From an uncultured Gemmatimonadales bacterium (GTDB lineage: Bacteria > Gemmatimonadota > Gemmatimonadetes > Gemmatimonadales > GWC2-71-9), in NCBI GenBank assembly GCA_963748815.1, contig CAVVKJ010000005.1, positions 320,001 to 384,000 of the forward strand: a stretch of 64,000 bases of DNA, written 5' to 3'. The notes below the pieces were generated by a model. The model made no database searches. It saw nothing but the letters and a program-made list of their open reading frames with translations, and had not been told where the DNA came from. Both the position numbers and the translations under genes were made by a program. Shown one piece after another: positions 448 to 35,139 of this stretch (positions are counted from its first letter, which is position 1; each line of letters starts with the position of its first letter).

Positions 448-3400
448 ATGAAGCAAAGTTGTGTGAGCGCCTTCACCCGTGCGGCGCGGTACCTCGCGCT
501 GACGGCAGTCGTTCTGGCGACGGGAGCCTCGACGCTCTTCGCCCAGGCCGCGACTGGTAAGATTGAAGGCAAGGTGCGCGACCAGCAGGGCGCGCCAATC
601 GCGAACGTGCAGGTCATCATCATCGGTTCGAAGTTCGGCGCGCAGACCAACGCCGACGGCTACTACTTCATCAACCTCGTCCCCGCCGGCAACGTGACGT
701 TGCAGGCCTCCTTCATCGGATACAAGAAGACGCAAATCACCGACCTCCGCGTCCTCTCCGGCCAGACGATCACGGCCGACATCACGATGGAATCGACCCC
801 GGTCGAGGTCCAGGAAATCACGGTCGTCGCGGCCCAGAACGAACTGGTCCCCCGTGACGCGGTCACCACCAAGCAGAACGTCCAGGGCAACTACACCGAG
901 AAGCTGCCGGTGGACCAGATCAACAACGCCCTGGCACTGCAGCCGGGCGTCGTGGCCAGCACGGGTGGCACCACGCTTTCCATCCGCGGCGGCCGGACCG
1001 ACGAGCAGGCCGTGTACGTCGACGGCGTTCCGGTCGGCGCGGGCAACCGCGGCGGCGGCTTCGTCACCGGCGGCGGCAACTCGATCTCCATCGGCACCAA
1101 CGGCTTCGAAGACGCCTCCGTCACGACGGGCGCCGGTTCGGCGGCCTTCGGCGGCGCCCAGTCGGGCATCATCTCGATCTCGACCCGGACCGGTGGCGAC
1201 AAGTTCACCGGCGCGGTCGGCTTCGAGTCCGACGGGCTCTTCGGCAACAGCGTGAGCCTCGGCTTCAACCGGATCACCGCCAGCCTCGGCGGCCCGATCG
1301 TCAACAACCTCTCCTTCTTCGTCAGCGGCGTGCTCGCCGGCGCTGCCAGCGCCGGGACCGGCCAGGACCGCGCCAACTCGCCGTACTTCACGGTGGCGGG
1401 CGTGGACACGGTCGTCGCGGTGCCGGACAGCAAGGGGAACGCCGTACTCCGACACGACGTATGTCACCGTCGACCAGTACGCCGTGTACACCGGCAAGTG
1501 CGACGAGACCATGACGTACGCCGGCATCAACATCCAGAACAGCACCAACCCCGACATCGCCAACAACTACGGGGTCGACTGCCAGGGCATCCAGCTGCCG
1601 GGTACCGCCAATTCGCAGTACCAGCTGCAGGGCAAGCTCAACTACACGTACGGCACCGGTTCGCGCATCTTCCTCAGCGCGAACGCGAGCCAGGCGCAGG
1701 GGCGGAACTTCACCTACGCCAACCTGTACAACCCGCAGCAGATCTTCGGCAACACCGGCACCAACCAGGTCTACACCCTCGGGTGGACGCAGAACCTGGC
1801 CAAGTCGTCGGCGCGGGCGCTGGCGCTCGACGTCTCCCTCTCGTACCAGACGGACGAGTTCATCACCTCGCCGCTGACCCGGGAGTCGGAAGTCGACAGC
1901 CGGAACCCGTGGGGCGGCTTCATGATCTCGCCGCTCAAGTACCAGTTCAACTTCGACAACTTCCCGCTGAACCAGGAGTTGATGGACAACTTCCAGCAGA
2001 ACAAGGCGAACAGCCGGCGCTCTCCGTACGACCTGGAGAACACCGCGCAGTACAGCCTGGTCGACAAGTGGCGGAACAACGCCTACGGCCTCATCGGCTT
2101 CACCGAAGCCGGCGGCCCGACCGGCCGGCTGACCATGAACCAGGAAAACCGGTTCATCGGCGCGGCGGCCCTCGACTGGCAGGTGGACCGCTACAACCGC
2201 CTCAAGATCGGTGGCGGCTACACCGGGTATCGACATCACCTCGTACTCGTCGTCCATGACCAGCCAGGCGTTCTCCGACTTCTACATGGAGAAGCCGACG
2301 TCCTAGACCGGCTACGCGGAAGACCGCCTCGACCTCGGCGACGTGGTCCTCGTGGCGGGCATCCGGTACGACTACTACAACAGCAACGCGTCGCACCCGC
2401 AGTACTGCGACTCGACGGGCTCGTGCCAGCCGACCGTCCGGATTTCGAGCAACCCGCTCTGGGATCCGAACGATGTCCAGGCCTCGCTCGACACCATCTA
2501 CACGCCGGACCAGTCGCACGACTACATCTCGCCGCACATCCAGGTGGCGTTCCCGGTGAGCGACCGGACCAACATGCGCTTCTCCTACGCGCACCAGGTC
2601 CAGCCGCCGGACTTCTCGCTGGTCCTCGGCGGCATCAACACCGACCTCGCCGTGACGAACACCAACCACGTCTACGGGTCGGACCTGGACTTCGGGACCA
2701 CGATCAGCTTCGAGTTCGGCATCCGGCACGCCTTCTCGGACGACTTCGTGCTCGACTTCTCGGCGTACAACCGCGACGCGCAGGCCAACCAGGCCGGCCG
2801 CCTGCTCTCGTTGTACGACCCGCTCAAGCAGCAGAACCAGGACATCCGGATGATGACGAACGCGGACTTCGGCAACTACCGCGGCTTCGACGTCCGGCTC
2901 GACAAGCGGATCGGCAGCCTCTTCAACGGCACGCTGGCGTACTCCTTCAGCGACGCCAAGAACACCGGCTCGGATCCGTTCACGTACATCAACTTCGGCT
3001 CGCGCATCGTGAACCAGATCTCCGGCGGTAACGATCCGCCGCCGTCGGCCTACCTGCCGACGACCTACACCCGGCCGCACAACCTGGCCGGTTCGTTCTC
3101 GATGACGTTCCCGAATGGCTGGCACTCGGGCTCGACCAGCGGCGCCATCCTCCAGAACGTGGGCATCTTCGCCACCTTCCGGGTGGCCAGCGGCACCGCC
3201 TACACCCGCTGCCCGGTGGAAACCGGCAACGAGTCGGTCATCTCCCCCGGCGTCTGCGCCCGGCAGTTCGAGGGCGACGTCAACGGCTCGCGCCTCCCGA
3301 CCTTCCGGAATACCGACCTCCGGGTCACCAAGGGCTTCCGGTTCGGCGGCGTGGACCTCACCGGGTACGTCGACGTCCGGAACCTCTTCAACTTCACCAA

Positions 3401-3770
3401 CACCACGCAGGTGTTCGCCGAGAACAACAGCATCACGAACACCGTTGAGCTCGAGGAGACCTGGACCGGCGACTCGTCCGGGTACGCGAAGGAAGCCATC
3501 GCGTCGGGCAGCTACGACGCGGAGAACGGCGACATGTTCCTGCCGACGCCCTCGGGCTGCGGCAACTGGGTGACGCAGGACGGCAAGGCCGCCGCGCCGA
3601 ACTGCGTGTACCTGGTCCGCGCCGAAGAGCGTTTCGGCAACGGCGACGGCGTGTTCAGCCTCTCCGAGCAGCGTCGGGCGTCGGAAGCCCTGTACTACGC
3701 GGGCCGCAGCGAGGCGAACTTCACCGCCGCGCCACGACGGATCCGGCTTGGGTTGGAGCTCAATTTCTAG
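448..3770 (+). CDS. TonB-dependent receptor with N-terminal carboxypeptidase-regulatory-like domain (frameshifts ~1450 and ~2230, in-frame TAG at 2304)
   Basis: Signal peptide ...STLFA-Q; GKIEGKVRDQQGAPIANVQV; plug LQPGVV...SIRGGRTDEQAVYVDGVPV; barrel strands AGIRYDY and ISPHIQVAFPVSDRT; C-terminal RIRLGLELNF; pieced from ORFs 388-2259, 1484-3031 and 2343-3770. Confidence 0.9.
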
Positions 3771-3860
3771 CGTGATCGATCCACGGCGGGAGGGGGGCCG
3801 GCGCGCCGAACGGCGCCGTCCCCCGTCCAGCCGAACAGTATCCATCTGAGAGAGGATGCA

Positions 3861-6800
3861 ATGCACTCACCATTCCGTAAGAGGGGCGTCATCCTGGCGG
3901 GCCTGCTGGCGCTGGCGCTCGCGGCGGCTTTGCCGTCGAACGCCATGGCCAAGCCGGAACCGGGGGCCAAGAAGTCGGCCAAGGGATTCCGGCTCTTCGC
4001 CCGTCCCCTGGGCGCCATGACGATCAACCGCGTCTACTGCGGTCTGTCGTCCGACGGCCAGATCTGCGTCGACTCCACCAACTCCTCCACCGTCGGTGGC
4101 GGGTACTGGCCCAAGGGCACGGCGGACCAGTACATCTTCAACACCGGCCTGCAGCTGGCCGGCGTCGTTTCCCCGCTGGACGGCGGCCCCTGGGCCGGCG
4201 ACACCACGGGCGCGTTCTTCTTCGATCCGAAGGGGACCACCCAGCACGGCACCCAGGTGGAGCCGATCTACAACACGTCGAACAGCAGCCGACCTCGACG
4301 ACCTGCCGCTGGCCGGCTACGTCCCCTTCGGCGACGCCACGGCCGACCTGTACAACCCGCTCCTGACCGGCACCGCCACGGACCGGAAGAAGCAGGCGTC
4401 ACAGGGCGACGTCTGGTGGATGTCGTGGGACGGCGACCCGGCGCTCAACGCCGGCCGCAAGCACCCGCTCGGCATCGTCGTCGAGACCCGCGGCATGGGG
4501 TGGAACTTCCCCACCGGCAACGAAGACATCATCTACTTCGTCTACACCTTCTACAACGTCACCACGACGAACCCGGCCGACTACGTCAACATCCGGCCGG
4601 AAATGCAGGCGATCCTGCTCGACAAGGCGGCGGAGTTCCAGGCCAAGAACAACGCGACGTTCAACGTGACCCTGCCGACCGGCGGGTACACGATCGACGA
4701 CCTGTACGCGGCGTTCGCGACCGACATGGACGTGGCCTCGGCCGGCACGAACTACTCCAGCGTCAACCTGCCGTTCGCCCTGGGCTATACCTACGTCCAG
4801 AGCTTCGCGGGTGAAGTCTCCTGGACCTTCGACCCGAACATCTTCTCGGCGCCCTTCATGTTCGGCGCCGGCTTCGCGGGGGTCAAGTACCTGAAGAGCC
4901 CCACCGGTCCGGGCGAAATCCAGCTCTTCTCCAACACGGTCAACGGCTCCCCCTTCCCGGGCGCCTTCAACGACCCGCAGAACACCATCCAGCTCTGGCG
5001 CTACCTCTCGGGCAACATCTCGGTGCCCGCCGGCGACCAGCCCTGCAACACCGGCGATCCGTCGTCCAGCCGCATCTGCTGGATCAACAACACCCAGCCG
5101 GCTGACATGCGCTTCTTCCAGTCCTCCAGCGGCTTCTCGCTGCCGCCGGGCGGCCAGGGTTCGATCGTCGTGGCGTACATCTTCGCCGCCCCGGTGGCGG
5201 CGGGCGGTTGCCCCGCCCCCGGCCCGACCTGCGGCGGCGGCAACGTGAAGCCCGGCAACCCAACGCTGCTCGGCAGCCCGGCGGGCATGACCGGCGGCGT
5301 CAACCTGGTGGACAGCATCACCGGGTACATCTCGGCGACCGACCTCGACCTCAGCGGCGAGTACGAGCAGGAAGGCACCGCCGGTCCGGAGTGGACCGTG
5401 GTTCCCGGCTCGCTCCTCGGCAAGTCCTACACGGCCCAGGCCGTGTTCGACGCGAAGTTCCTGCTGCCGTTCGCGCCGGACCCGCCGAAGTTCTTCCTGA
5501 TCCCGAGCAACAACCAGGTCACGGTGGTCTGGCAGGCGTCGCCGTCGGAAGCCAACGGCGACCCGTACTACGCCATCGCCTCCGATCCGAGCAGCGCGCT
5601 CTACGACCCGAACTATCGGCAGTACGACGTCGAAGGGTACCGGATCTATCGTGGCCGGGTGGACAGCCCGGACGAGATGGCGCTCATTGCCCAGTTCGAC
5701 TTTTCGGGCACCATCTTCAACGACTATGACGGCGTCATCAACTACGTGGACGGCTGCGCTCCCGAACTGGAACATCTACCTCGACTGCCCGGTCGCCTGT
5801 CCATCGACCCGGTCGTCCCCGGTCAGCCGCGCACGGTGGCCAACCCGAACCCGATCGTCAGCCCGTTCATCGAGACGAAGTTCGGCAACCGGCTGGCGCT
5901 GGCGAGCGGGCTGTCCATCACCACCAAGGCGGACACGGTCGTCACCGGCGGCAACTCCGGGCTTCCGCCGCTTCGCGACACCGGCATCCCGTACATCTAC
6001 GTGGACAACGGCGTCCGCAACAACTTCCGGTACTTCTACGTGGTCACGGCGTTCGACGTGAACTCGTGGACGTCCGGCCCGACCAGCCTCGAGTCGCCCG
6101 AAGGCGGGGACCGCGTCGGTCATTCCGCAGGCGCTGGCGTCCAACCTCGTGCAGACCGGCACCCTCACGCCGGGCATGTTCGGGCGGCCCAGCGCCGAGG
6201 AGCCGGGCGGAACCAACCAGAGCCTCGTCTTCCCCAAGACGCCCGGGCTCAACACCAACGGCACCTTCACCGGGCCCTTCCCGCCGGCCACGGTTCAGCT
6301 CGGCTTCGTCGGGTTCGCGAGCCAGGTGGTCGGCGCCTCCGGGGCGCTCTCCGCGAAGCTCGACAGCCTCCAGGTCGGCGACGTCGACCTGACCGGCTGC
6401 TGCGGCGGCGGTCAGCCCGGTAAGCCGGCGGTGTACTACTTCACGATGTCCAACGGGTCGGACCCGGCATTCCAGATCGCGGTCCCGCTCCAGCAGGACC
6501 TCGGCGTACGATGTGTCGACCGACGTGTACTTCGCCGGTCCGGCCATCGACGGCTCCCTCGCCTCGCTCTACGGCGGCGACGGAACCTACGGCACCCTCA
6601 GCGCGCTCTTCACCCCGACCATCACCGCGGGCCCGATTGCCGCGGACTGGGGACTCGGGTCGGCGCTCAATGAACCGTTCCTCGCGCCGTCGGAGTTCCC
6701 GACCGGCGTGACCGGCGTCAACTACAACGGCTGGCGCTGGTTCGACGGCCCCTCGCCGACGACCAACGAGACCATGGCCGATCCGATCGGCGGTTCCTGC

Positions 6801-7895
6801 GGCACCGGAGCCACCGGCACGACGGCCTGCGCCAGCCAACGGCACCACGTCGTTCGCGAACGCCGGCCAGCTGACCGGGGTCACCACGGTCTACCAGCCG
6901 ATGTCGTACAACATGTACAACCGTGAATGGCGCAACGTGGCCGAATACCCAGTCGAGCGCCATTCGCGCCGCCGACTTCAACGTCTACTGGGGTGCGGCC
7001 GGCGTCGTCGACTCGATCATCGACGTCACCCACAACGTTGAGGTCCCCTTCCAGACCACCGCCGGTGGCGGCTGGGGCATCCTGAACACCTCCGACCAGG
7101 GGGCGGGCGGCTTCGACAACCGGCCGACCGTGCTGACTCCGACCGACTGGACCTGCGTGGATCCATTGCGCACCCAGGCGCCGGGCAGCGGCGCGGGCAC
7201 ATTCTTCCCGTGTGCCGCCGCCGCAGGCTTCGTCCTGAGCAACACGGCGGAGCTCGGCGCCATCGCCTTCGGTTCAGGCAATGCGCAGTCGGCCACGGCC
7301 ACCAAGTCGGACCGCAACCCGGCCAACATCGAGGCCGAGGGCGGCTTCTACATCTGGATCGCCGGCACCATCAGCGGCTTCACAATGCCGTCGCTGCCGG
7401 CGGCCGGCACGGTCTGGGCCCTCCGGAGCTACACCGGCGTCATCTACGGTGGCAACGGCGTGGCGCAGTCCGGCAATCGCGGTCCCTACTCGTTCGTGGC
7501 GGCCACCCGGCCGTTCACTGCGGTGGGCGCCACGATGGGCGTGCGAATACGACGTGGTCAACGACTTCAACGTCGCTGCGTCGAACCTGGATCTCTCGAC
7601 GATCCACACGGTGCCGGATCCGTACTACGTCACCAACGCCTACGAGGTGGACTACACCTCGAAGGTCATCAAGTTCGTGAACCTTCCGCTGCAGGCGACG
7701 ATCCGCATCTACTCGTCGAGCGGGATCCTGGTCCGGGTCCTCAATTACGAGGCCTCTCAGAACGGCGGCATGCTGGACTGGAACGTCCGGAACCGGAACA
7801 ACCAGGTCGTTGCAAGCGGTGTGTACTTCTATCACGTCGAATCGGGCAGTGCGCGCCACATCGGGCGCATGACGATCGTCAACTTCGCCAAGTAG
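3861..7895 (+). CDS. Large secreted protein (~1,340 aa, several frameshifts) with FN3-like module and C-terminal T9SS type-A/FlgD-Ig-like sorting domain
   Basis: Signal peptide ...SNAMA-K; PPKFFLIPSNNQVTVVWQ, DVEGYRIYRG, YVDNGVRNNFRYFYVVTAFD; C-terminus IHTVPDPY...IKFVNLPLQATIRIYSSSGILVRVL...LDWNVRNRNNQVVASGVYFYHVE; ORFs 3861, 4096, 6149, 6513, 6923 and 7281 join by frameshifts. Confidence 0.8.
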
Positions 7896-7906
7896 CCACG
7901 CCGGGG

Positions 7907-7929
7907 GTGGGGGGAACATTTCCCCCCAC
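7907..7929 (+). other. Intra-operon stem-loop between the cargo gene and porV
   Basis: GTGGGGGGAA-CAT-TTCCCCCCAC perfect 10-bp stem, no U-tract. Confidence 0.6.
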
Positions 7930-7956
7930 ATCCCGCATCCAGGAGACAGAATACTT

Positions 7957-9078
7957 ATGAAGCGGCACACTGCGCATGGGTTGGCCCTGGCGGCGCTGCT
8001 GGTGGGCGGGTTGCCCGTGGCCCTCGCGGCCCAGGCATCCGAGATCAACGCGGACAACACGCCATACGGCACGACGTCGGGAGAATTTCTTCTCCTCGGC
8101 GCCAGCGCCCGCGGCGCCGCGCTCGGCAACGCCTTCCAGGCCATCGCCAACGACGTCTCGGCCCTCTATTACAATCCCGCCGGCATCGCCATGATGGAAC
8201 GCCCGGGAGCGCTCGTCAGCACGTACTCGTACGTCGCCAGCACCCGGTACAGCTGGGGCGGTTTGGCCTTTCCGTTCTCGGGCGGCGCCCGGGCGGTCGG
8301 CCTCCACCTCGGCACCTTCGGGTTCAAGGACCAGCCGGAATACACGGTGGACCTCCCCGACGGCACCGGCGGCACCTACTCCGTGAGCGAGTCCTACCTC
8401 GGCCTCACCTACGCGGAGAACTTCTCGGACCGCTTCTCGGCCGGCATCACCGCCAAGGGCGTCTTCGACCAGCTGGGTGAAGTGAGCGGGAGCGCGTTCG
8501 CGGTCGACTTCGGCACCAATTTCCACTCGGCGCTGAACAACCACCCGATCAAGTTCTCCTTCGTCATCCAGAACCTCGGCACCAACCTGAGCTACAGCGG
8601 CGACGCGCTCAACGTCGGCGTCCCCCGGGACCCGGCCGAAGGCGAAGAGGCCGTGCCGAGCAACCCGCAGCCGGGTTCGTACCGCACCAAGGCGTTCTCG
8701 CTGCCGACCACCTTCACCGTGGCCGTGGCGTACGACATCATCGCCAAGGAAAGCACCCGCTGGACGCTGCTCGCCGACTTCAACCAGCCGAACAACACGG
8801 GCCCCGGCTACGTGTTCGGCACGGAGTTCGGCTTCCCGCAGATGGGCGGCAGCAACTTCAACGGGTCGGTCCGCGCCAGCTACAGCTACGCCTCGGCCAA
8901 CTCCGGTCAGGACGTCTCGGGCAGCCAGCTCAACGAAGAGCAGAGCTACCAGGGCTCCGCCGTCGGCGGCGGCCTGAGCTACACGACCGAAACGTTCAAT
9001 CTCGGGTTCGACTATGCCTGGAAGTACATGGGCATTCTCGGCTCGACCAATTTCTTCACGTTCAGCATCGGCTGGTAA
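7957..9078 (+). CDS. porV: PorV/PorQ-family outer-membrane beta-barrel (FadL-like fold)
   Basis: Signal peptide ...ALAA-Q; family motif FLLLGASARGAALGNAFQAIANDVSALYYNPAGIA; FAVDFG; QNLG; C-terminal aromatic strand FTFSIGW. Confidence 0.8.
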   Translation: MKRHTAHGLALAALLVGGLPVALAAQASEINADNTPYGTTSGEFLLLGASARGAALGNAFQAIANDVSALYYNPAGIAMMERPGALVSTYSYVASTRYSWGGLAFPFSGGARAVGLHLGTFGFKDQPEYTVDLPDGTGGTYSVSESYLGLTYAENFSDRFSAGITAKGVFDQLGEVSGSAFAVDFGTNFHSALNNHPIKFSFVIQNLGTNLSYSGDALNVGVPRDPAEGEEAVPSNPQPGSYRTKAFSLPTTFTVAVAYDIIAKESTRWTLLADFNQPNNTGPGYVFGTEFGFPQMGGSNFNGSVRASYSYASANSGQDVSGSQLNEEQSYQGSAVGGGLSYTTETFNLGFDYAWKYMGILGSTNFFTFSIGW

Positions 9079-9127: not shown

Positions 9128-10567
9128 ATGGTTCGCTGGTTTTCGCTGGCCCTCGCGGCTGGCGTACTCGTCGCCCCGACCCGGATCGGTGAGCGGCCAG
9201 CCGAAGATGTGATGGCGGTCCGGGCGGTCCGGTTCTATCGGGCCGAAACCCGCCAGACACTGGTCAAGGCGTTTGTTCAGATTCCGTACGTGGTCTTCTC
9301 GAACGACGCCGGCACCGGCTCCAGCGACCAGGTCACCTACTTCGTGACCGTCAAGGTGTCCGATTCCACCGGACTCGGGCTCCTGCAGGAAGGATGGACC
9401 AACCACATCGCGAAGGCCCTGGCGGTGCCGGGGGTGGTGGGGCTGGAAATGCTGGAGTTCCCTGTCCTCCCCGGGAACTACGTCCTCGACGTGACGATCG
9501 AGGACAGCGTGACCGGGCGGAAGGCGTTCGCCACGGCGGCCATCGAGGGGTATCGATCCCCGCCGGCCGTCTCGGACCTGCTGCTTTCCCCGGAAATCCG
9601 GGTGGCAGCGCCGGGCGACACGGTGCCGAAGCCCGGCGAGTTGCGGATCGGGAATGTCCTGGTGACCGGAGCGGTGGAACTGCACCTGACGCCGCTGCAG
9701 AGCCAGGCCTACTACCTGATCGAGGCGTACGGTGCGGCACCCGCGAACGGCACCTTGTCGGCCGCCATTCGCGACTCGGCAGGGAAGACGATCCTGAAGA
9801 CGCCAGCGGCGGCGGTCAACGTGCCGGCCGGTGGCGGAGTCCTGAAGGGTCAGCTGGACTTGACGGGGTTGCCGGAAGGGCAGTACACGATGGCGGTGTC
9901 AGTCGCCCTCGAAGGCGTCACGTCGGAGCGGGAACAGCCCTTCGTGATGGCCAATCTCGACGAAACGCTGCGCAAGGAAGCGGCGCGAATCGAGATGGAA
10001 CAGCGGACCGACGCGGGGTACTTTGCCGCGATGAACGAGGCGCAGCTGGACAGCGCCGCCGGTCCCCTGCTCTACATCGCGACGCCGTCGGACGGGCTGA
10101 ACATGTACAAGGACCTGAGCGTCGATGCCAAACGGCGCTGGTTGACGGAGTTCTGGGTCCAGCGGGACCTGAGTCCCGGGGTGGCGCGGAACGAGACGCG
10201 CGAGAATTTCTACGAGGCGGTCGCCTACGCCAACCAGCAGTTCAAGGTGGGGGGTCGCCGCACCACCCCAGGGTGGCGCACCGACCGGGGCCGGATCTAC
10301 GCGAAGCACGGGCCCTACGACGCGTTCCTCGACCGGGTGTCCCAGGGCCAGGCGCCGCCCTACCAGGTCTGGCGCTATACGAAGCAGAAGGACCTGTATT
10401 ACATCTTTGTTGACCGGAACAATCTGGGCGAGTTCCTGATGATTTACACGAACGACCTCACCGAGGTCTCCCGGCCCGACTGGCGGGATCTCCTGACCGC
10501 CGACGGGGTCATCGATGTGGGGCGCTGGCTGGGCGTGAATTTCTTCGGACCACAAAGCGACCAGTAA
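9128..10567 (+). CDS. GWxTD domain-containing protein
   Basis: FYEAVAYANQQF...PGWRTDRGRIYAKHGPYD...YQVWRY; AGGAG RBS before ATG 9128; N-terminal hydrophobic segment and Ig-like domains. Confidence 0.88.
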   Translation: MVRWFSLALAAGVLVAPTRIGERPAEDVMAVRAVRFYRAETRQTLVKAFVQIPYVVFSNDAGTGSSDQVTYFVTVKVSDSTGLGLLQEGWTNHIAKALAVPGVVGLEMLEFPVLPGNYVLDVTIEDSVTGRKAFATAAIEGYRSPPAVSDLLLSPEIRVAAPGDTVPKPGELRIGNVLVTGAVELHLTPLQSQAYYLIEAYGAAPANGTLSAAIRDSAGKTILKTPAAAVNVPAGGGVLKGQLDLTGLPEGQYTMAVSVALEGVTSEREQPFVMANLDETLRKEAARIEMEQRTDAGYFAAMNEAQLDSAAGPLLYIATPSDGLNMYKDLSVDAKRRWLTEFWVQRDLSPGVARNETRENFYEAVAYANQQFKVGGRRTTPGWRTDRGRIYAKHGPYDAFLDRVSQGQAPPYQVWRYTKQKDLYYIFVDRNNLGEFLMIYTNDLTEVSRPDWRDLLTADGVIDVGRWLGVNFFGPQSDQ

Positions 10568-18170: not shown

Positions 18171-18341
18171 GGTCGGAATCGGCTCCTTGACCCCGGGCTG
18201 GCGAGGCGTAAGTTTTTCGGCCATCGCCCGGATGTGCCGGGCCGCCATTTGGGGGTGACCGGCCAGTCGCGGTCACGGGATGACGTGGGGCCAATTCTCC
18301 TGTCGGACGTGCGCCTTATTTACTCCAGTCGAGGTGTCCCT

Positions 18342-21300
18342 ATGCAGTCATGGTTTCGTCGGGTAGCGACCGCGACGGCCGTGGGCGTGCTGTTTGCGCT
18401 CGGGGCCGGCAATCTCTTCGCGCAGGGCGTCACAACGGCGGCGGTGACGGGGACCGTCACGCAGGAGACCGGGGCGCCGGTCGAGGGCGCCGTGATCACG
18501 CTGACCAACCGCGGCACCGGCGCCAAGACCACCGCGACCACGCAGGGGAACGGCAAGTTCTTCATCGAAAACGCGCCGGTCGGCGGCCCCTACACCATCG
18601 AGGCCCGCGCGATCGGCTTCGAGAGCGCCCGGCGCGACAACGTGATGCTCTCCCTCGGCCAGCGCTTTGTCTCCAACTTCACGCTCCGGCAGCAGGTCGT
18701 GGAGCTGCAGGAAATCGCGGTCAACGCCGAAACCGGCGACCCGGTCATGAACACCGCGAAGACCGGCGTGGCGCAGTCGATCAGCGACAGCGCCATCAGC
18801 CGCCTCCCCGTGCTGGGCGGCAACTTCACGAACCTGGTGGCGACCACGCCCCAGGTCGCGTCGATCGGCGCCGGTGTCTCGGCCGCCGGGCAGAACAACC
18901 GGTTCAACAGCATCCAGATCGACGGCGGCGTCAACAACGACCTCTTCGGGCTCGGCGCCACCGGCGCCCCCGGCGGCCAGGCGGACTCCAGGGCCATTTC
19001 CTTCGCCGCGGTGAAGGAATTCCAGGTGCTCATCGCCCCGTTCGACGTGCGGCAGGGCAACTTCGCCGGCGGCCTCGTCAACGCCGTCACGAAGTCGGGA
19101 GCCAACGCCTTTCACGGGTCGGTGTTCGGGCGCCTGCAGAACCAGGACCTGGTGGGCACCGACGTCAACGGCCAGAAGGCGGCGGACTTCAAGGTCCTGC
19201 AGTACGGCGGCACCCTGAGCGGCGCCATCCTCAAGGACAAGCTCCACTACTTCGCCGCGGCCGACATCCAGGAGCGGACCACGCCGTTCGACGGCATCAC
19301 GCTCGAGGAGTCCGGCGCCGCGCCGGGCGACGCCGAGCGGATGATCAACCATCTCAACGCCCTCGGGGCCGATCAGTGGGGCGGGGCCGGCAACGCCGGC
19401 GGCTTCCTGATCGAAAATCCGAACCCGACCTTCTTCGGGAAGCTCACCTGGGCGCCGGCCGCCAACCACAACGTCTCGCTCTCCTACAACAACGTCGAGG
19501 CGTCGGTGGACGTGATCAGCCGACGGCGGAACGGCGACTGGTCGCTGAGCTCCAACGCCTACTCCATCGAGAACAACACCAATTCGCTCCGGCTCATCTG
19601 GAGCGCGCTCTTTGGCGGCAAGTACTCCAACGAGTTCATCGGCGGCTGGCAGTCGATCCGGGACAACCGGCCCCCCGCCGCGACCTATCCGACGATCTAT
19701 GTCGGCTCGGGCGGATCGGGCACGCGCCTGGCGGCGGGCGCCGAGCGCTTCTCGCAGGACAACTCGCTGGACCAGGACATCTTCGAACTGACCGACAACC
19801 TGACCATCGGCGTCGGCGATCACCGGGTCACCGTCGGCACCCACAACGAGTTCTTCGGGTTCAACAACCACTTCTTCCCGCAGAGCATCGGGCAGTGGAC
19901 CTTTGCCAACATCGACTCCTTCGAGAACAACGCGCCGGTCCGGTTCGACCGCGCGCTGCCGCTCATTCCCGGCGGCCCGGTGTCGGACTTCAGCGTGAAC
20001 CAGTGGGGGCTCTACGCGCAGGACCAGTTCAACATCGGCAACCTCGCGCTGACGGTTGGCCTCCGGTGGGACGACCCCATCTTCCCCGATTCGCCGACCT
20101 ACAACCCGACGCTTGACTCCATCACCTCGGATGGGGCGTTGTGGACCGGCGGGACCATCAACACCAGCGTGGTGCCGAGCGGCAACGCCACCTGGTCGCC
20201 GCGCATCGGCTTCAACTGGGACGTGGACGGCTCCGGCACGACGATCGTCCGCGGCGGCGTCGGCTACTTCGGCGGCCGGCCGGCCTACGTCTGGATGTCG
20301 AATGCCTACGTGCAACACCGGCATGACGCAGACCCAGCTCACCTGCCGGAACGACAACGCCAACCCGGACGACAACGTGCCGGGCTTCTCCCTCGATCCC
20401 TCGCTGCAGCCGACCACGTGCGCCGGCACCGCCGGGGTCCTGCCGCCGATTCCGACCATCAACTACTTCGACCCCGACTTCAAGTTCGAGCAGAACATGA
20501 AGCTGTCGTTCGGCGTCGATCATCGGCTGCCGTGGGGGATGGTCGGCACGATCGACCTGCTGTACACCAAGTCCAAGAACACCCTCTACATCCAGGACAA
20601 CAACCTCCAGGGCGTGGTGGACGAGAGCACCCTCACCTACGCCACTGGCGAGGGCAACCGGGCGCGCTACGGCGTGAACTCCGTCACGACCGGCGCCGCC
20701 ACGCCGCTGAAGCAGACCGCCGCCTTCGGCAACGTGCTCGAGCACCTGAACAAGTCCGAGGACCACGCCTTCAGCGGCACCATCCAGCTGCAGAAGCGCT
20801 TCTCCAACGGGATCGAGTTCAACGGCGGGTACACCTACAGCGACGCGCAGGACGTGATGTCGCTGACGTCGAGCATCGCCTTCTCCAACTACGGATTCGC
20901 GACGCTCAACGGCCTGCTCAACGACCGCGAGCTGACCACCTCCACCTTCAGCCGCCCGCACCGGGTGGTCCTGAGCGGGAGCGTCAACCTCCCGGGTGAC
21001 TTCGACTTCTCCCTGATCTACTCGGGCGTCTCGGGCTCGCCCTACGGCTACGTGATCAACGGCGACGCCAACGCCGACGGCGTCGGCGGCACCAACCGCG
21101 AGTTCAACGACATGTTCTACATCCCGCGGGACCGGGATGACATCACGATGTACGGCGCGACGGCCGCGGCGCAGAACGCCTCGTACGACTCGCTGGCCAA
21201 CTTCATCAACTCCCAGGACTGCGTCCGCAACCAGCGCGGCCAGATCATGGAGCGGAACAGCTGCCGGAACGCCTGGGTCAACCGGCTCGACGCCCGGCTC

Positions 21301-21558
21301 CAGAAGAACATCCCGACCTTCAACGGCCAGGTGATGGTCCTGTCGCTGGACGTCTTCAACCTGCTCAACATGATCGACAAGGACTGGGGTCTCGTGAAGA
21401 CGACCAGCGCCTTCGAAGGCCAGAGCCTGGTCCAGCTTCGCGGCTGGGACCCGCTCTACAACCGCGGCATCTACAGCAACGCCTTCCCCATCCTCAACCG
21501 GGTCGATCCGATCGCTTCCGTCTGGCGCATTCAGCTGGGCGGCAAGTACATCTGGTAA
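18342..21558 (+). CDS. TonB-dependent receptor, Oar-like, with carboxypeptidase-regulatory-like domain (frameshift ~20310)
   Basis: Signal ...NLFA-Q; GQNNRFNSIQIDGGVNNDLFGL; EFQVLIAPFDVRQGNFAGGLVNAVTKSG; WSPRIGFNWD; C-terminal WRIQLGGKYIW. Confidence 0.92.
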
Positions 21559-24484: not shown

Positions 24485-27400
24485 GTGGCCCGTCTTGCCG
24501 TTGCTCTCGGGTGCCTGCTGTTGCTGCTGCCCGCCGTCGCGTCCGCCCAGGACGAGCCGGGGGCCATCGGCGTCGGCGCGACCTTCAATCTACCGCTCCC
24601 GGCGCTCCGGCAACCGCCCCAGGCGCGGGCGGCCTGGCTGGGGGCGCCCAGCGTCACGCCGGCCCAGGCGGGGGCACGGTGGCAGGCGCAGCTGGATCAT
24701 CGGCTCGACCGCGAGCGGGCGGCGTCGAGCTCCGCCACGCTCATGGCCGCGCTCTACGGGACCAACAACCTGCAGGTCCAGTACATCGACGCTTCGCTGG
24801 AGGAGCGCAAGAGCATCCTCGGGATCCCGTCAAAATACGCCGATTTGCGCATCGACGGCTCGGTCTTCCTGGAGGTGCGCACCGACCGTCTCCGGAACCT
24901 GACCTGTACCCCGGCGCAGTTGCTGGACCAGAACTCCGGCTGCCGGGGCGGGTTCAAGGCCCCCCGGCTCGACAACGAGTTCAACGCCAAGGTCGGCGGC
25001 CTGATCGGCAGCCGGCTCCACCTGAACGTCGACTACGACTCCCGCCGGGAGTTCAACGCGAACAACGACATCCAGGTCTACTACCAGGGGCTGCAGGACG
25101 AAATCCTGCAACGGGTCGAGGTCGGCACCGTGTCGTTCCGGACCCCGGCCTCCCGCTTCCTGACCGCCGCCATCCCCGCCAACAATTTCGGCCTCAACGC
25201 CACCTTCGAGTTCGGCGCCGTGACGCTGCAGGCCATGATGGCGACGCAGGAGGGCAGCGTCGTCGGCCAGCGCGTCTACACCGTCGGCTCCACCACCAGC
25301 GAGCCCCAGGATCGGCTGGTGCGCGACCTCGACTTCGAGACGGGGCGGTTCTTCTGGGCGGTCGACCCCGCGACGCTCCCGAACTACCCCTTCGTGGACA
25401 TCCTCAACCTCGACGCGGTGGCCATTCCCGCGGCGGTGCAGCCCGCGGACGCGCAGGTCCGCGTCTATCGCTACCGCACCGGCGCCGGGAGCGGGCTCAA
25501 CCCCAACCTGGGCGGCATCACCGCCATCGGGTTCCGGCCGGACGGCCCCGAGCGGGTCGAGGGCACCTGGCAACTGCTGCTCCAGGGAGAGGACTACTAC
25601 CTCGACCCCTCCGCCACCTGGTTTGCGCTGGCCACCAAGCTGGACCAGAACGACTATCTCGCCGTCAGCTACATCACCGTCACCGGCACCCAGGTCGGGA
25701 CCTTTCCGGCCGGCGAGAACCCGGCGGTCACCGACAGCGTCCTGCTCGTGTCCATCCCGTTGCAGGGACCCACGCAGCAGACCTTCCGGCACGAGATGCG
25801 CCAGGTCTACCGGGTCTCGGGCACCGACCTCGAGCGGCCCTCGCTCAAGGTCACCGTCACGCTGAACCAGTCCGAGCGTCCCTCGAACGACGAAGCGCAG
25901 ACGTACCTCGCCTTCTTCGGGCTGGCCATCCCGCCCGACCCGCACATCTTCGACGTCGACAACCGGGTCTTCCCCCGGGTCCGCGATCCGGGCGCGGATC
26001 TCGTCCTGCGCGAGTCGTACATCGCCTATCCCTCGCTCAAGCCGTTCATCGACCCGCGGCTGCAGCCGAACGAACGGGCCGATTCGGTCTACAACTCGCC
26101 GGTGTACCTGCTCCTGACGCCGCAGGGCCCGCCGTCGCGCTTCCAGATGCGGTTGGAATACAACGCCGCCGGCGGGACCGATCCCGGCAGCCTGAACCTC
26201 AACGCCCTGCAAATCCGCCGCGGCTCGGAGCAGTTGATCGCGGGCGGCCGGGTGCTCGAGCGCGGCGTGGACTACGAGATCAACTACGATCTTGGCCAGG
26301 TCACCTTCAACAGCCCCGCCACCCTCTTCCCCTCGGGCGTCGGCACCGTCACGGCGCGGTTCGAGGAGCGGGGCATCTTTGCCGTGGCGCCGACCTCGAT
26401 CCTCGGCGGGACGCTGAGCTACTCGCTGGGCGACGTGGGGTCGGTCAACCTGATCGGGATGTACCAGAAGGAGCAGTCGGTGTTCACCCGGCCGACCCTC
26501 GGGTTCGAGCCGACCTCCAACCTGCTCACCGGCGTCACGACCGACCTTCGGTTCCAGGTGGACGGCGTCAGTCGGTTCTTCAACAAGCTCACGTCGCAAA
26601 GCGTGACCGCCCCCTCCGTCCTCGACATCCGGGCCGAATACGGCACCACCCATCCCGACCCGAACATCATCGGGCAGGCGTACCTCGAGGACTTCGAGGG
26701 GGAGTCGGCCATTCCGGTCTCGCTCCTCACCTCGCGCTGGGACTACGGCAGCGTGCCGCAGTCGTCCGCGGGGGTGGAGAGCCTCGGGTTTGCCACCGGC
26801 TTCGACTCGCTCTGGGCGGTCCAGCTCTCCTGGCAGAACCTGATCCCGGCCTGCTCCGGCTGCCCCCCGGTCGAGCTCTACCCGCAGGACATCGACCCGA
26901 CCATCCGGACCAACGGCCAGGGGAGCCTCAACGAGACGGTCTTGTACATGACCTTCCACGCCGACACCGCCGGCGGGATGGTGCAGCAGAACAACCGTTC
27001 GCTGTGGACCCAGCCGGACCGGCCGTTCACGCCCCGCTGGCGCTCGATGGTGACGCCGCTCTCCCAGACCGGCATCGACCTCTCCCGGGCGGAATACCTC
27101 GAGTTCTGGGTCTTCCAGGGCGGGGAAAAGACGGTCGACTCGGCGGGGATGCAGCTGGTCGTGGACCTCGGCTCGGTCAGCGAGGACGCGCTTGCGGTGG
27201 CCCCGGACAGCCTGACGGTGGTGGGGTCGGACAGCCTCTACACCGGCCGGCACTACACCGGCGTCGGCCTCCTCAACACCGAGCGGCAGTCCACCGGCAT
27301 CTTCAACGCCTCCACCGACGACATCGGCATCCTGCTCGACCGGGTCGACTCCCTCTTCGTCAACGGCGCGGTGCAGTCCGAGGTCCAGACCTGCGCCCAG

Positions 27401-30400
27401 GTCCTCTCCGAGACGGTGTCGATCTACCCCTGGGGCGACCTGAGCAGCCGGTGCTCCAACGGCAACGGCTTTCTCGACACGGAGGACCTGAACGGCGACA
27501 ACCGCCTGAACGCGCAGGGCTCCAACGACAACGTGCTGCGATGGATCATCCAGCCCAACGATCTCTCCCAGTACTACGTGCGCACCGGCGCGACCTACAC
27601 CAACACGCAGGGGCAGACGTCGACCTGGACGCTCTACCGGATCCCGATGCGGATTCCCGACGCGACGATCGGCACGCCGAACCTGCGACTCGTCCAGAAC
27701 ATGCGGGTGACGCTCGTCGCCCCCGACACGCCGGAGCCGGACGTCGTCGCGCGCTTCGCGCTGGCGCGGATGCGCTTCACCGGCGCGCCCTGGGTGCGCC
27801 GGGCCGATACGCCGCTCATCGGCATCGGCGGGTCGGTGGCGAGCCCCACCGGGACGATGTTCGCCGCGGTCATCTCGACGGAGGACATCGCGCTCGGGTA
27901 TGACCTCCCCGCCCGGGCGTGGTGAACGAGCCGGCCCAGAACAACAACGGCCAGGCCGTGCAGGGGGTCCAGATCAACGAGAAGTCGCTCCGGGTCGTCG
28001 CCACGTCGCTCGACGTCGGCGAACGCGCCGAGGCGTACCAGCGCTTCCCCTCCGGCCCCCAGAACGTGCTCAAGTACCAGCAGGTGCAGGTCTGGTTCCG
28101 CGGCCGCGGCGCCGGGTGGGAGAGCGGGGACCTCAACGCCTACTTCAAGATCGGCAGCGACGACCAGAACTGGTACATGTTCATCCGGCCCGCCAGCAGC
28201 ACCGTCTGGGTGCCGGAGGCGGTGATCAGCATTCCCGTCTGGCGGCAGCTCCGCGCGCAAATCGAGCAGCGGTGGCTGCAGGGGCTGCCGCCCAGCGGGG
28301 CCGTCGAGTGCGGCATCGGCGATCCCGCGGCCTACGTCGCCTGCGACGGACCCTACGTGGTGCAGGTGGCCGATCCCGGCGTCAATCCGCCCAACCTCGC
28401 CGCCGCCCAGGAGATGGCCGCGGGCATCTACCGCGTCGCCGACACCGAGGTGCTGACCACGGTCGAGCTCTGGGTCGACGACATCCGGCTCGACGATCCG
28501 GTGACGGAGTCCGGTGCGTCCATGGCGTTCGACGCGCGGCTCGCGGCGGCGGATGTGGCGGACTTCTCGGTCAACTACGTGCGGCAGGACGGCCTCTTCC
28601 AGCAGATCGGGCGGGACCCGACCTACCGCACCACCGGCGCGCTCGTCCTCGGCACCAACCTCCGGGTGGACCGGTTCCTTCCGGCCTCCTTCGGGGTCGC
28701 CGTCCCGTTCTCGATCAGCCACACCTACACCTCCGCCGATCCGATCCTCATCGGCGGCACCGACATCCTCGCCGCCGACATCGAGAACCTGCGCCAGCCG
28801 TCCAGTGGACTGACGCAGGTCAACTTCGGCATCCGCCGGACCCGAAAGGGCACCAACGCTCTCCAGCGAGGGTTGGTCGACCCGCTGACCTTCACCGGCT
28901 CGTTCACCTCCGGGCAGAGCCAGACGGAGCTCTCCTCGGGGACGACCTCCGCCAGTCTCTTCAACCTCACCTACAACCTGTTCCTGCCCAGGACCGGACC
29001 GGCGGTTTCGCTGGGCGGGGCCGTGGACGCGCTGCCAGGCTGGGTGGGGAGGAGCGAGGGGCTGACGGCCGCCCGAACGACGCAGTTCGGGCTGGCGCCG
29101 ACCGGGATTCGACTAGGCAGCCAACTGGCGCGCACGGAGAGCGACTTCACCGGCTACCTCGTCCCGGTGCTCCGCCCCGGCGACGCCGCCCTGCAGCCGG
29201 CGGTGTCCCTCACCAACCTCTGGCGCAACAGCGCCGGTGTCACCTGGCAGCCAGTCGGGATGCTCACCTTCAGCGCCGACCTCGCGAGCACCCGGGATCT
29301 CCGGGATTACGACGACACCACCTCGATCGGCCGCCTTACCGATGCCTCCCGGAAGGAATTCCTCGGCATCGACGTGGGGGTGGAGCGCGACCGGACGCTG
29401 GGGACCGCCATCAACCTCAGCCCACGCCTGACCTCCTGGCTGCGGGGGCGATTCATCACGACGAGCAACTTCGTGCTTTCCCGGAGCCTGACCAGCCGGG
29501 CCCCGATCCAGGAATACGGCGACAGCGGGATCTACATCCTTCCCCAGACGCTGAACAACCTCCGGTCACGCGAATTCGGCTTCACGATCGACGCGCCCCG
29601 TGGCTTCAAGCAGCTGTTCAAGGACTCGAGCGCCGCCACCCGCGCCCTGCTCGGACTCCGGGTGCTGGACTTCGTCTACCGGACCTCGCGCGCCTCGACC
29701 TACGACCTCGCCACCTTCAATCCCGATCTCCGGTACATGCTCGCCCGCGGGAGCACCTCGGACTTCCTGACCCAGGACGGCGATTCGGCGCTTAACGTCG
29801 TCGAGACCACGACGATCACCGTTGGCGGCGGTGCCGATCTGCCGTACGGCATCACCGCCGGGCTGCAGTACTCCTCCTCGGAGATCGACCGGTACGCCCG
29901 CGCCAGCAACGGCTACCTCCTCTCCGAGATCACCCAGAAGGAATGGCCCATCTTCCAGGCGCGGTGGACCCAGACGGTCAAGCAGGGACTGCTCTCCGTG
30001 GTGAGCCTCTCCACCAACATCCGGAAGCGTTCCGGGCAGACGGTGCTCCCCTCCTCCACCGTCAGCGCCGTGTCCCTCAACGAGACCTCCACCTGGACCA
30101 ATGACCTCCAGCTCACCTTTCGCCAGGGCATCAGCCTCACCCTCGGCTATGGGGTCTCCAGCAACGAGCGCCAGAGCAACGGCACCACCACCCTCGGCGA
30201 CGGCACCGACATCACCGCCAACCTGATTTACCTCTTCCGGCTTCCCGGCAGCCTCAGCAGCGCACGCAAGCAGATGCGGGTCTCGATCAACGCGCTGTCC
30301 AGCAAGGCGGAGACCTGCCTGGAACTGCCAGGGAACCCGAACTGCACCGGGATTTCCGACATCCGCCGGAAGACGCTGCGCGCCGGCGTCGACACCGACA

Positions 30401-30531
30401 TCCTGAGCATCCTGACCGGCGGCTTCCAGGCGGCCTACGTCATCAACGACGTCCGCCAGCTCAACCGGAAAACCGAGCAGCTCACGCTCAGCCTGACCTT
30501 CCAGCTCTCCCTCTTTTCCGGAGATTATTGA
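24485..30531 (+). CDS. sprA: SprA/Sov-like T9SS outer-membrane translocon (~2,015 aa, frameshift ~27915)
   Basis: Signal ...AVASA-Q; SprA-like motifs LHLNVDYDSRREF, YYQGLQDEILQRVEVGTVSF, GSEQLIAGGRVLERGVDYEINYDLGQV, AYLEDFEG, DTEDLNGD, WTLYRIP; amphipathic beta-rich C-terminal third. Confidence 0.85.
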
Positions 30532-31514: not shown

Positions 31515-32159
31515 ATGGAACCCACCGAGCGCCGGGCCATCCTGTTGCTGCTCCTGCTGGGGGTCGTCGGGCAGGGGGTCCGCTGGGTCGCGGGCCGGCC
31601 CGGGGAGCCGCCGGGGCAGGTGGCCCTCATGCCCGTGGAGCGGCGAGGAAATCCCGCCGCCCATCGGGATAGCGCGTTGGCCGTGGCTCGCCCCATGGCG
31701 CCGGGAGAGACCCTCGATCCCGACCGGGCCACGGTCGCCGAGCTGCTCCGACTTCCGAAGGTGGGCCCCGCGCTGGCCCGCGCCATCGTGGCCGACCGGG
31801 AGGCGAAAGGCCCGTTTCGGAATGCCCAGGGCCTCGACCGGGTCTCCGGCATCGGCCCCAGGCTGCTCGAGGCCGTCGGGCCCTTCCTGGCGTTCGCCGG
31901 GGGCGGTCCGGGCGGGGGTGGCGCGGGGTCGGACCCGCGGGCGTGCGAGGTGGAGCCCGTGGCCTGCCGGCTCAATCTCAACTCGGCGACCGCGGCGGAA
32001 CTCGAGGCGCTGCCCGGCATTGGCCCGGCGCTGGCCGGCCGGATCGTGTCATACCGCGATTCGCACGGTGCCTTTGCGGACATCGGGGGGCTGCGTGCGG
32101 TGGCGGGCATCGGCCCCGCGCTCCTGGGGCGTCTGACCCCCCTCCTGACAGTGCGGTAA
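31515..32159 (+). CDS. comEA: ComEA-family DNA-binding protein with two helix-hairpin-helix domains
   Basis: N-terminal TM; ATVAELLRLPKVGPALARAIV and LNLNSATAAELEALPGIGPALAGRIV. Confidence 0.85.
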   Translation: MEPTERRAILLLLLLGVVGQGVRWVAGRPGEPPGQVALMPVERRGNPAAHRDSALAVARPMAPGETLDPDRATVAELLRLPKVGPALARAIVADREAKGPFRNAQGLDRVSGIGPRLLEAVGPFLAFAGGGPGGGGAGSDPRACEVEPVACRLNLNSATAAELEALPGIGPALAGRIVSYRDSHGAFADIGGLRAVAGIGPALLGRLTPLLTVR

Positions 32160-32226
32160 GTCATTGTGTTTCAAGACGTTGAGCGTGCAGGTGAGGCGCG
32201 GATGCAATAGATGGCACGGGAATGGC
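32157..32226 (+). promoter_or_regulatory. IHF-like box and sigma54 promoter of pilBTC
   Basis: TAAGTCATTGTGTTTCAAGACGTTG (32157-32181); TGGCAC-GGGAA-TGGC (32212-32226), GG and GC correctly spaced. Confidence 0.6.
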
Positions 32227-32290
32227 AACTCGCGCCATCGGTTACTCCCGTCTATTTCATCGACCTCCGCCACCGAGGGGCAGCGCCAGC

Positions 32291-34003: not shown

Positions 34004-35139
34004 GTGTGAACCTGCGCGCCCTGCTGGAAGAGGTGATCGAGCGGGAGGCGTCCGACCTGCACATCACGGCCGGCGAGCGCCCGAAGCTCCGGATCGACGG
34101 CGACATCACCAACAGCACGACGACCTACGTGATGTCCCCGAAGGACACGCTGCAGCTGGCGTACTCCGTCCTGACGGAAAACCAGAAGAAGCGGTTCGAG
34201 ACCGAGGACGAGCTCGACTTCTCCTTCGGCATCCAGAACCTGGCGCGCTTCCGCGGCAACTGCTTCAAGCAGCGGGGCTGCGTCGGCATGGTCATCCGGA
34301 TGATCCCGTTCAGCCTGAAGACGTTCGACGACCTCGGCCTCCCGCCGATCCTCGGCAAGCTCGCCGAGAAGCCGCGCGGCCTGGTGCTGGTGACCGGCCC
34401 GACCGGCTCGGGCAAGAGCACCACGCTCGCGGCGATGATCGACAAGATCAACAAGGAGCGGAAGGGGCACATCATCACGGTGGAAGACCCGATCGAGTTC
34501 ATCCACCGCCACCAGTCGTGCATCGTCAACCAGCGCGAGGTGGGCACCGACACCAAGTCGTTCTCCACCGCGCTCAAGTACGCCCTGCGCGAGGACCCCG
34601 ACGTCATCCTGGTCGGCGAAATGCGCGACCTCGAGACCATCTCCGCGGCGCTCACGATCGCGGAGACGGGCCACCTGGCCCTCGCCACGCTGCACACCAA
34701 CTCGGCGGCGGAGTCGATCAACCGCATCATCGACGTCTTCCCGTCCAACCAGCAGCAGCAGGTGCGGGCCCAGCTCGCCTTCGTGCTGGAGGGGGTGGTC
34801 ACCCAGGTGCTGCTCCCCAAGGCGAAGGGCCGGGGGCGGGCCATGGCGTGCGAGATCATGGTGGCCACGCCGGCCATCCGGGCGCTGATCCGCGACGACA
34901 AGGTGCACCAGATCTAGAGCGCGCTGCAGTCGGGCAAGAAGCACGGCATGCAGACGATGAACGATGCGCTGTACCAGTTGTACATTTCGCGGGAAGTGGT
35001 CCGCGACGAGTGCCTGCGCGTCTCGGGCGACCCGAACGAGTTCCTCCGGATGATCGGCGAGAAGCCGCTGGAGGAGCAGGAAATGGGCACGATGGCTTCG
35101 ATGGACTCGAAGGGCGGCAAGTCCGCGCTGCGCCGCTAA
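34000..35139 (+). CDS. pilT: Type IV pilus retraction ATPase PilT (in-frame TAG at 34915-34917)
   Basis: ASDLH, GPTGSGKSTT, EDPIE, LREDPD, AETGHL, AIRALIRD; reading frame continues HQI*SALQSGKKHGMQTMN. Confidence 0.93.

Follow-up and report, generated by a model that had tools for sequence, protein, structure and literature searches.

Among the closest described relatives of the arrangement considered here are the SusC/SusD pairs (RagA/RagB) of the Bacteroidota, in which the gene for a TonB-dependent transporter (TBDT) with a CarboxypepD_reg-like N-terminal extension stands directly before that of its surface partner, the lipidated, TPR/helical SusD. TbpA/TbpB, BtuB/BtuG and XusA/XusB, which are among the Foldseek matches of the receptor described below, likewise combine a TBDT with a separate ligand-capturing surface protein. 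The partners in these three systems are lipid-anchored, two of them being called lipoproteins in the titles of their entries, and to our knowledge TBDT accessory proteins described to date are lipoproteins. Here we examine a 64,000-nucleotide stretch of DNA from an uncultured Gemmatimonadales bacterium (the window; positions 320001–384000 of contig C5, GenBank CAVVKJ010000005.1, in a genome 86% complete). Near its start, a TonB-dependent receptor (TBDR) gene is followed by the gene for a large predicted surface protein, the cargo, which ends in a type IX secretion system (T9SS) C-terminal domain (CTD), and then by the gene for a PorV-family barrel. Unlike the lipid-anchored partners above, the partner in this cassette would be T9SS-exported and barrel-anchored.

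A second set of precedents comes from type IX secretion itself. CTDs are reported to load onto the extracellular loops of PorV inside the SprA translocon, extraction of the resulting pair to need energy, and the Gld motor and hub to be required for pulling carrier–cargo pairs out of SprA (PMC10994853; PMC12635249). In the Porphyromonas gingivalis attachment complex, PorQ anchors PorZ and PorV anchors PorU, neither anchored protein losing its CTD (PMC5562754), much as the cargo here is predicted to be held, CTD retained, on a PorV/PorQ-family barrel; the cassette pair differs in being tied to a TBDT gene, and its passenger is neither PorZ nor a C25 sortase. Type B cargos have their cognate carrier, a PorP/SprF shuttle, encoded directly downstream (PMC12618676). 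The cassette resembles them in its dedicated downstream carrier gene, on whose product the cargo is predicted to stay, whereas its CTD is type A-like, its carrier is of the PorV family, and the available part of that paper places no TBDT in known type B pairs. In the Bacteroidota BAM complex, BamG, a 14-strand FadL-family barrel, holds the surface protein BamH beside a larger barrel (PMC12611786); there the larger barrel is BamA, and BamH is a lipoprotein without a CTD. Every part of the cassette has a known counterpart.

The three genes stand head-to-tail on the + strand, with start and stop codons confirmed and a purine-rich ribosome site before each start. An initial annotation of this DNA had reported three co-oriented genes with gaps of 90 bp (TBDR–cargo) and 61 bp (cargo–PorV), and these coordinates check out exactly. 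The parts of the cassette are:

448–3770, + strand: TBDR, with signal peptide and CarboxypepD_reg-like N-terminal extension, then TonB-box-like EITVVA, plug, 22-strand barrel whose extracellular loops are large and Cys-paired, and C-terminal Phe (Pfam, AlphaFold2, Foldseek)
3861–7895, + strand: cargo, ~1335 aa when read through ~8 breaks, with Sec/SPI-type (signal peptidase I) leader, passenger domains and T9SS CTD
3995–5470 (approximate), + strand: cargo N-terminal domain, a galactose-mutarotase-like beta-supersandwich with helical insertions (model, VIA-align)
5470–6150 (approximate), + strand: cargo FN3 domain with a long insertion (VIA-align)
6150–7545, + strand: variable, beta-rich cargo region of lowest conservation, barely covered by the fold search
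7560–7892, + strand: cargo T9SS CTD, type A-like (profile matches, alignment)
7957–9078, + strand: PorV/PorQ-family barrel, 373 aa, intact, without Cys (NF033709)

The same annotation had proposed that the cassette is a functional analogue of SusCD built from T9SS parts. In favor of that proposal are the conserved triplet, the non-SusD partner, the co-occurrence with SprA, a triplet-specific PorV branch and the failure to find a PorU-type sortase in four genomes of the genus, all detailed below; the CTD–PorV and cargo–TBDR contacts, the lid role and the surface location stand as predictions. The full reading, in which SprA exports the cargo, the uncut CTD stays on the cognate PorV and the cargo captures ligand for the TBDR, strikes us as evenly poised between right and wrong. 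Taken separately, export and retention on the cognate PorV appear quite probable from known T9SS biology taken together with the genomic results. Granted those two steps, it is fairly likely that the anchored cargo would serve the TBDR as capture partner, the evidence for this service being gene order by itself, kept down to about 25–30% identity.

The triplet is a real, conserved module. Our genome collection contains 550 cargo relatives, of which the best 80 yielded 76 Gemmatimonadales loci, a sample biased to close kin. Of these loci, 56 have room on both sides, and the order TBDR–cargo–PorV is intact in 51 of the 56. A smaller set of 20 loci overlaps with the 76 and is not counted in addition. 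We also hand-picked 20 distant loci from weaker matches, 3 in family f4 of the same class and 17 in families f10 and f12 of other classes. Their cargos are 23–43% identical to that of G001, a relative with whole genes; the triplet is present in 18/20, with a TBDR upstream in 19/20 and a PorV downstream in 19/20, each miss being a contig end. Several f10 genomes (G042, G045, G048, G053, G058; L132–L151) hold two or three divergent triplet copies each. The neighborhood survey thus bears out the expectation that the triplet would be conserved across the Gemmatimonadota.

On its model, the TBDR has the look of a complete TonB-dependent importer. Its plug scores 32.3 bits against PF07715 (cut-off 23.9), and the G001 orthologue, modeled with AlphaFold2 from 82 rows (predicted local distance difference test, pLDDT, 89.4; predicted template modeling score, pTM, 0.85), folds into 22 barrel strands. 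All Foldseek matches listed for this model are TonB-dependent transporters, at 9–13% identity, with E about 1e-24 to PhuR, PqqU and FepA. The terminal Phe is invariant (82/82 homologues), and the stretch E-I-T-V-V-A, called TonB-box-like by the TonB box consensus, precedes the plug, with its I/V/L-x-V pattern conserved. TonB itself (PF03544, TonB_C) was found in all four genomes of the genus searched.

Against the SusC/RagA profile TIGR04056, however, the receptor reaches only 54.5 bits, far under the cut-off of 368.25, and matches with its N-terminal part only. The partner differs as well: it is all-beta, 1330 aa long, and has a CTD and a cleavable leader, where SusD is lipidated and TPR/helical, and the unit includes a third, barrel gene, with no adjacent glycoside hydrolase seen in the Gemmatimonadales. 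By these sequence comparisons the cassette is not a SusCD member. Searches of four genus genomes turned up neither SusC above its cut-off nor SusD (PF07980), G026 and B. thetaiotaomicron being positive.

The receptor loops and the cargo had also been described as rich in Cys pairs. The pairs are real: the mature TBDR has 8 Cys, making four pairs, all in predicted extracellular loops 2, 6, 10 and 11, with an even Cys count in 63/63 Gemmatimonadales TBDRs, and the cargo has 14, the count being even in 110/118 cargos. "Rich" was an overstatement, as the cargo is only ~1% Cys and distant TBDRs have just 0–3 Cys (19/19). Cys-richness is therefore rejected as a defining trait, and the TBDR pairs appear from the alignments to be a trait of the Gemmatimonadales, because the distant homologues have so few.

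That the gene after the TBDR encodes a Sec/SPI protein with a CTD, and not a SusD-like lipoprotein, holds on closer inspection. Judged by eye, the leader has a basic N region and a hydrophobic core and ends AMA-K, with an A-x-A end in the homologues listed; no lipobox was found in any of 115 cargo homologues examined, no Pfam match (SusD included) was returned for the full-length G001 cargo, and the model (residues 31–1225, 58 rows; pLDDT 89.0, pTM 0.75) is mainly beta. A profile of the N-terminal half had no match among PDB sequences, and the ESM Atlas gave only unnamed clusters. A search of representative sequences, which carry no gene context, returned 1315 relatives at E <= 0.001; related proteins, again seen as proteins alone, are labelled Ignavibacteria, Rhodothermales, Bacteroidia, Zixibacteria, Hydrothermota and Glassbacteria.

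The N-terminal domain, the most conserved part of the passenger, has structural neighbors that are largely carbohydrate-active. In VIA-align it matches dextran dextrinase 9ju0 with Z 18.9 (root-mean-square deviation, rmsd, 3.2 A; 254 aligned residues; 7% identity) and residues 34–275 of glucoamylase 1lf6 with Z 18.7; matches at Z 13–19 are to GH15, GH94, GH65 and related enzymes, mostly in their N-terminal domains, and mutarotase-like proteins follow at Z 12–13.5. FN3 domains match the cargo at Z 11.6 (rmsd 2.2–2.4 A, 94 aligned), and the fold search barely tested the protein past residue 760. The fold gives a weak lead that the ligand may be a carbohydrate; a common fold by itself proves no function for this domain.

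These same matches are what recommend an unlikely alternative, namely that the PorV-anchored cargo is a surface enzyme, cutting polymer for the TBDR in the manner of SusG, and not a binding lid. Carbohydrate-active enzymes are the top fold matches, invariant or near-invariant polar residues (e.g. N55, D181, N230, D413, R415) are found in the N-terminal domain, and other Gemmatimonadota PorV paralogues sit behind a subtilase or an HExxH protein. The matched stretches, however, are mostly the N-terminal beta-sandwich of the enzymes (e.g. 1lf6 residues 34–275), which we take to be non-catalytic; identity across the fold matches is 6–13%, the YidC periplasmic domain matches too (Z 11.7–12), and no Pfam or PDB sequence match to any enzyme was obtained.

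The CTD, also among the best-conserved parts of the cargo, scores 23.2 bits against TIGR04183, 0.2 bit above the cut-off of 23, most orthologues scoring 22–29 bits. Among NCBIfam profiles it is best matched by the CTD part of PorZ (NF052228, E 1.2e-7), as are the CTDs of 5/5 distant cargos scanned. The match reaches 30.6 of the 260 bits required and is confined to profile positions 683–739 of 757; the cargo passenger is not PorZ. The last strand of the CTD starts G-[RK] in 77/77 rows, and this basic residue would correspond to the conserved lysine described in the available text of PMC10994853. In that account, the lysine is contacted by PorV F115. The cassette barrel keeps the FGF loop, aligned with F. 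johnsoniae PorV F113–F115 such that F123 falls on F115, and a Phe occupies the position matching F115 in 64/78 rows. Covariation between PorV and CTD (mutual information with average product correction; 77 paired rows, effective number 49) lacked a clean intra-protein control signal.

The barrel itself belongs to the PorV family by NF033709 (133.4 bits, cut-off 90, profile 1–324 of 326), and a PDB sequence search matched it to a single entry, 6h3i_F, which is F. johnsoniae PorV (E 2.9e-5). It lies below both equivalog cut-offs, for PorV (NF033710, 44.7 vs 250) and for PorQ (NF033711, 66.7 vs 220). A quick tree was built from 44 rows: 27 triplet PorVs (out of 78 aligned), 6 era-locus rows and 11 others. 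A branch with an SH-aLRT of 94 separates the 27 triplet PorVs from the remaining rows. The barrel had been termed the cargo's own PorV paralogue: the triplet-specific branch upholds "own", whereas the implied spare copy beside a housekeeping PorV does not hold, since this is the only PorV above the family cut-off in this genome. Because most of the 11 other PorVs likewise have a large gene of the same orientation immediately upstream (when identifiable, a subtilase or HExxH protein), one private PorV per cargo looks like the rule in the phylum.

Two further PorV loci may be recorded here. In this genome, a second cargo-like gene (a 602-aa frame of no family) is followed by a weak PorV barrel of 42.7 bits (G000:C10; L169:8064–10750, – strand, beside dnaE), and in the orthologous pairs of other members of the order the cargo is of HExxH type. 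In other Gemmatimonadales (L163–L168), a PorV-family barrel (123 bits in L163) lies between era and a second uncharacterized outer-membrane-type gene; this era-locus PorV has no CTD cargo upstream, was not found in the present genome, and may act as a general carrier or in the manner of BamG.

The likely export channel of the cargo is encoded ~15 kb downstream of the cassette:

24485–30531, + strand: SprA translocon gene, frame-broken (TIGR04189 above cut-off at 24959–28743; PF14349 at 27919–30528)

SprA lies on the cassette's contig at a similar distance in several relatives. Among 301 genomes of the phylum, the cargo was found in 102 and SprA in 223, and 101 of the 102 cargo carriers also have SprA; the lone exception is 88% complete and in 540 contigs. 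(These tallies, like those for GldM and GldN below, include the unpublished G177, which is SprA-positive without cargo; the figure of 101/102 is independent of it.) In family f1, none of 26 SprA-negative genomes has the cargo. Each genus genome holds about two TIGR04183 matches, one being the cargo and the other a conserved protein of 149 aa made of signal and CTD, so that the cargo would be the main visible SprA client in the genus, though diverged CTDs escape this profile. The 149-aa protein, with nothing beyond a signal peptide and T9SS CTD (TIGR04183 25 bits; G000:C10:512550–513000; L052:1477–1926, – strand), has a similar short frame as the match, or second match, in all 16 other genus genomes, and is possibly a plug, decoy or accessory of a reduced system. 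In families f2 and f7, TIGR04183 matches are few or none in those SprA-bearing genomes searched (f2: 0/8).

No peptidase C25 (PF01364) was found in four genus genomes (86–98% complete), G042 serving as positive control, and the PorU profile NF033707 matches the CTD only, identifying no PorU-type sortase. An uncleaved CTD fits this result.

From these parts, a mechanism can be sketched along the lines of known T9SS biology. Sec would deliver the cargo into the periplasm, and oxidation of its Cys pairs would take place there. The CTD would then load onto the PorV loops inside SprA, and the PorV–cargo pair would exit sideways. As no sortase was found, the CTD would remain uncut and PorV would be a permanent anchor, as PorQ is for PorZ. 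Finally, and this is the weakest step, the anchored pair would dock beside the TBDR, where the beta-supersandwich would bind a polymer or oligomer and pass it to the barrel for TonB-driven import.

Several observations weigh against this reading of the cassette as a T9SS-exported capture machine, and some of them lend themselves to other explanations. Cargo and PorV occur without an upstream TBDR in L072 and L083, solo cargos with neither neighbor are seen in L099, L104 and L123 as well as in L046 (outside the 56-locus count), and L089, also outside the 56, has TBDR and cargo with no PorV match in the 2.5 kb covered. With two cargo+PorV copies and several solo cargos, the cargo is linked more tightly to PorV than to the TBDR. 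Shorter proteins that carry either an ordinary CTD or FG-GAP repeats have the N-terminal domain family too, and the domain therefore does not require a TBDR. In the Gemmatimonadales, moreover, the neighbors of the cassette are an M24 peptidase and a GWxTD protein, not glycoside hydrolases. The copies without a TBDR would suit an adhesin or surface-layer unit made of cargo and PorV, with its own carrier, the TBDR being merely co-regulated and out of contact. The FN3 and variable beta domains are suitable for that role, and cargo-then-PorV is a general pattern for other cargos of the phylum, including the second, weak pair of this genome. We regard this explanation as distinctly unlikely, given that the same TBDR family stands directly upstream in 19/20 distant loci and before each of several copies within one genome. 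The orphan copies are also few: the L072 genome holds a full triplet besides (L067), and L083 has a TBDR of the cassette family ~6 kb upstream.

The solo or tandem cargo paralogues (L104:6782–14474, L046, L099, L123) have altered C-terminal ends and no adjacent TBDR or PorV.

The capture-machine reading is weakened on the secretion side as well. Because related genomes are not independent samples and SprA and cassette are close neighbors in f1, the SprA–cargo co-occurrence counts as support, not as a statistic. G042, a distant triplet carrier, has a C25 protein ~30 kb from one of its copies, and in that genome the CTD may be cleaved. The cargo's CTD only just passes its profile, and the G001 orthologue falls under the cut-off. 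GldM and GldN were found in 0/301 phylum genomes, in searches run without a positive control, such that diverged motors may have been missed, and GldK and GldL were not searched.

The last of these observations invites the idea that the TBDR aids secretion, TonB force acting through it to pull the PorV–cargo pair from SprA in place of the Gld motor. SprA is present in 223 genomes where no GldM or GldN was detected, and genomes of the genus have no more than about two TIGR04183 matches each, the cargo among them. We consider this very improbable: SprA is common in families f2 (45/70 genomes) and f7 (46/48), in neither of which any cargo was found, other cargo–PorV pairs have no adjacent TBDR, the TBDR looks like a complete importer, and the motor searches have the limit just given. 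A shade more improbable again is that the CTD is vestigial or serves for docking only, the cargo working in the periplasm beneath the TBDR. The marginal CTD score and the undetected motor would be accommodated by such an arrangement, and a Sec leader and disulfides are equally compatible with it. Nevertheless, the CTD is among the best-conserved parts of the protein, the cargo occurs without detected SprA in just the one fragmented genome in 102, and known PorV binds CTDs by its extracellular loops, according to the available text of PMC10994853.

Returning to the SprA-exported, PorV-anchored cargo, we think it likely that the triplet works like a TBDT with a surface partner. It is apparently undescribed so far: a literature search found no description of a TBDR–cargo–PorV triplet, with most subscription papers and supplements lying outside the search. 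A survey (10.1101/031039) places the T9SS only in Bacteroidetes in the sections available, with Gemmatimonadetes absent from its figure; supplementary distribution tables may list SprA or PorV in Gemmatimonadota. If the reading is true, an SprA-exported, PorV-anchored partner would be a second way of building a capture machine, and would explain how Gemmatimonadales without SusCD feed across the outer membrane. It would also mean a working SprA/PorV/CTD system outside the Bacteroidota, to which the literature, so far as available, confines the T9SS, and in genomes where a motor reported there as essential was not found (in searches lacking a positive control), so that the energy need of type IX secretion could be put to a direct test. 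A bolder version, which we rate as doubtful, would have the Gemmatimonadota running a stripped type IX system, with SprA and private PorVs but neither a Gld motor nor (in this genus) a sortase, whose main job in the genus would be an importer capped by a barrel-tethered, 1330-residue lid replacing SusD, with TonB possibly supplying the force in place of the missing motor.

Only PorV is a single open frame among the three genes; the TBDR and cargo are frame-broken (~10 errors), third-position GC revealing two frame switches in the TBDR and repeated ones in the cargo. The TBDR has two +1 breaks, at ~1441 and ~2231, plus an in-frame TAG at 2304–2306; in the cargo the breaks number about eight (~4285, 5769, 5799–5804, ~6096, ~6506, ~6833, 6943 and 7543). 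G001 carries both genes whole (TBDR 1106 aa, cargo 1333 aa; 91% identity to the cargo query stretch), and its proteins were used for models and searches in place of the broken genes. Aligned to G001 DNA, the breaks are mostly single extra bases. Since short-read contigs of near-identical strains do not have the extra bases at 2231, 5769, 5799–5804, 6835, 6943 and 7543 (at least six breaks, in the rows listed), assembly error is the likely cause. At the TAG, W or Y is found at the matching position in 57/82 homologues; the short-read rows listed do not resolve this codon. Programmed frameshifting or amber recoding was rejected, as relatives are intact, the short-read contigs do not have the extra bases, and TAG terminates both genes. 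True pseudogenes are unlikely on the first two of these grounds, and because other genes of the window, e.g. sprA, are similarly broken.

Three further features lie in or beside the cassette:

3784–3832, + strand: RNA hairpin in the TBDR–cargo gap, GC-rich, without U run (z –3.9)
7900–7936, + strand: RNA hairpin in the cargo–PorV gap, without U run (z –3.1)
9086 or 9128–10567, + strand: GWxTD-domain protein, the fourth co-oriented gene (TIGR04514, 72.6 bits)

The first hairpin has z < –2 in 59/69 relatives vs 0/69 coding controls, the second in 45/63 relatives vs 9/63 controls, and the two may tune relative mRNA levels. Rfam gave no match on 8 cassette loci, hence no riboswitch clue to the substrate. 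Contigs from RNA libraries (85–92% identical relatives, 3 studies) span all three genes and each junction; contigs cannot prove transcription or co-transcription and are not counted as support.

Of the Gemmatimonadales loci with room, 52/58 have the GWxTD gene behind the cassette and 48/57 have an M24 peptidase in front of the cassette. Rate covariation over 38 five-gene loci (r: TBDR–PorV 0.54, cargo–GWxTD 0.47, TBDR–cargo 0.43, TBDR–M24 0.36, cargo–PorV 0.22) fails to set the triplet apart from these neighbors. A literature search for the term GWxTD gave no match; two further GWxTD genes occur elsewhere in this genome.

Elsewhere in the window, a second TBDT-like gene (CarboxypepD_reg + OMP_b-brl_4, frame-broken) lies at 18234–21558, just upstream of the sprA region, and is followed by unannotated frames. 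Type IV pilus genes (ComEA-like, PilB/PilT ATPases, PilC, pilin, PilN/O/Q) occupy 31515–36230 and 53934–61805; they are ordinary, and a frame error in this region fuses the secretin to chorismate synthase.

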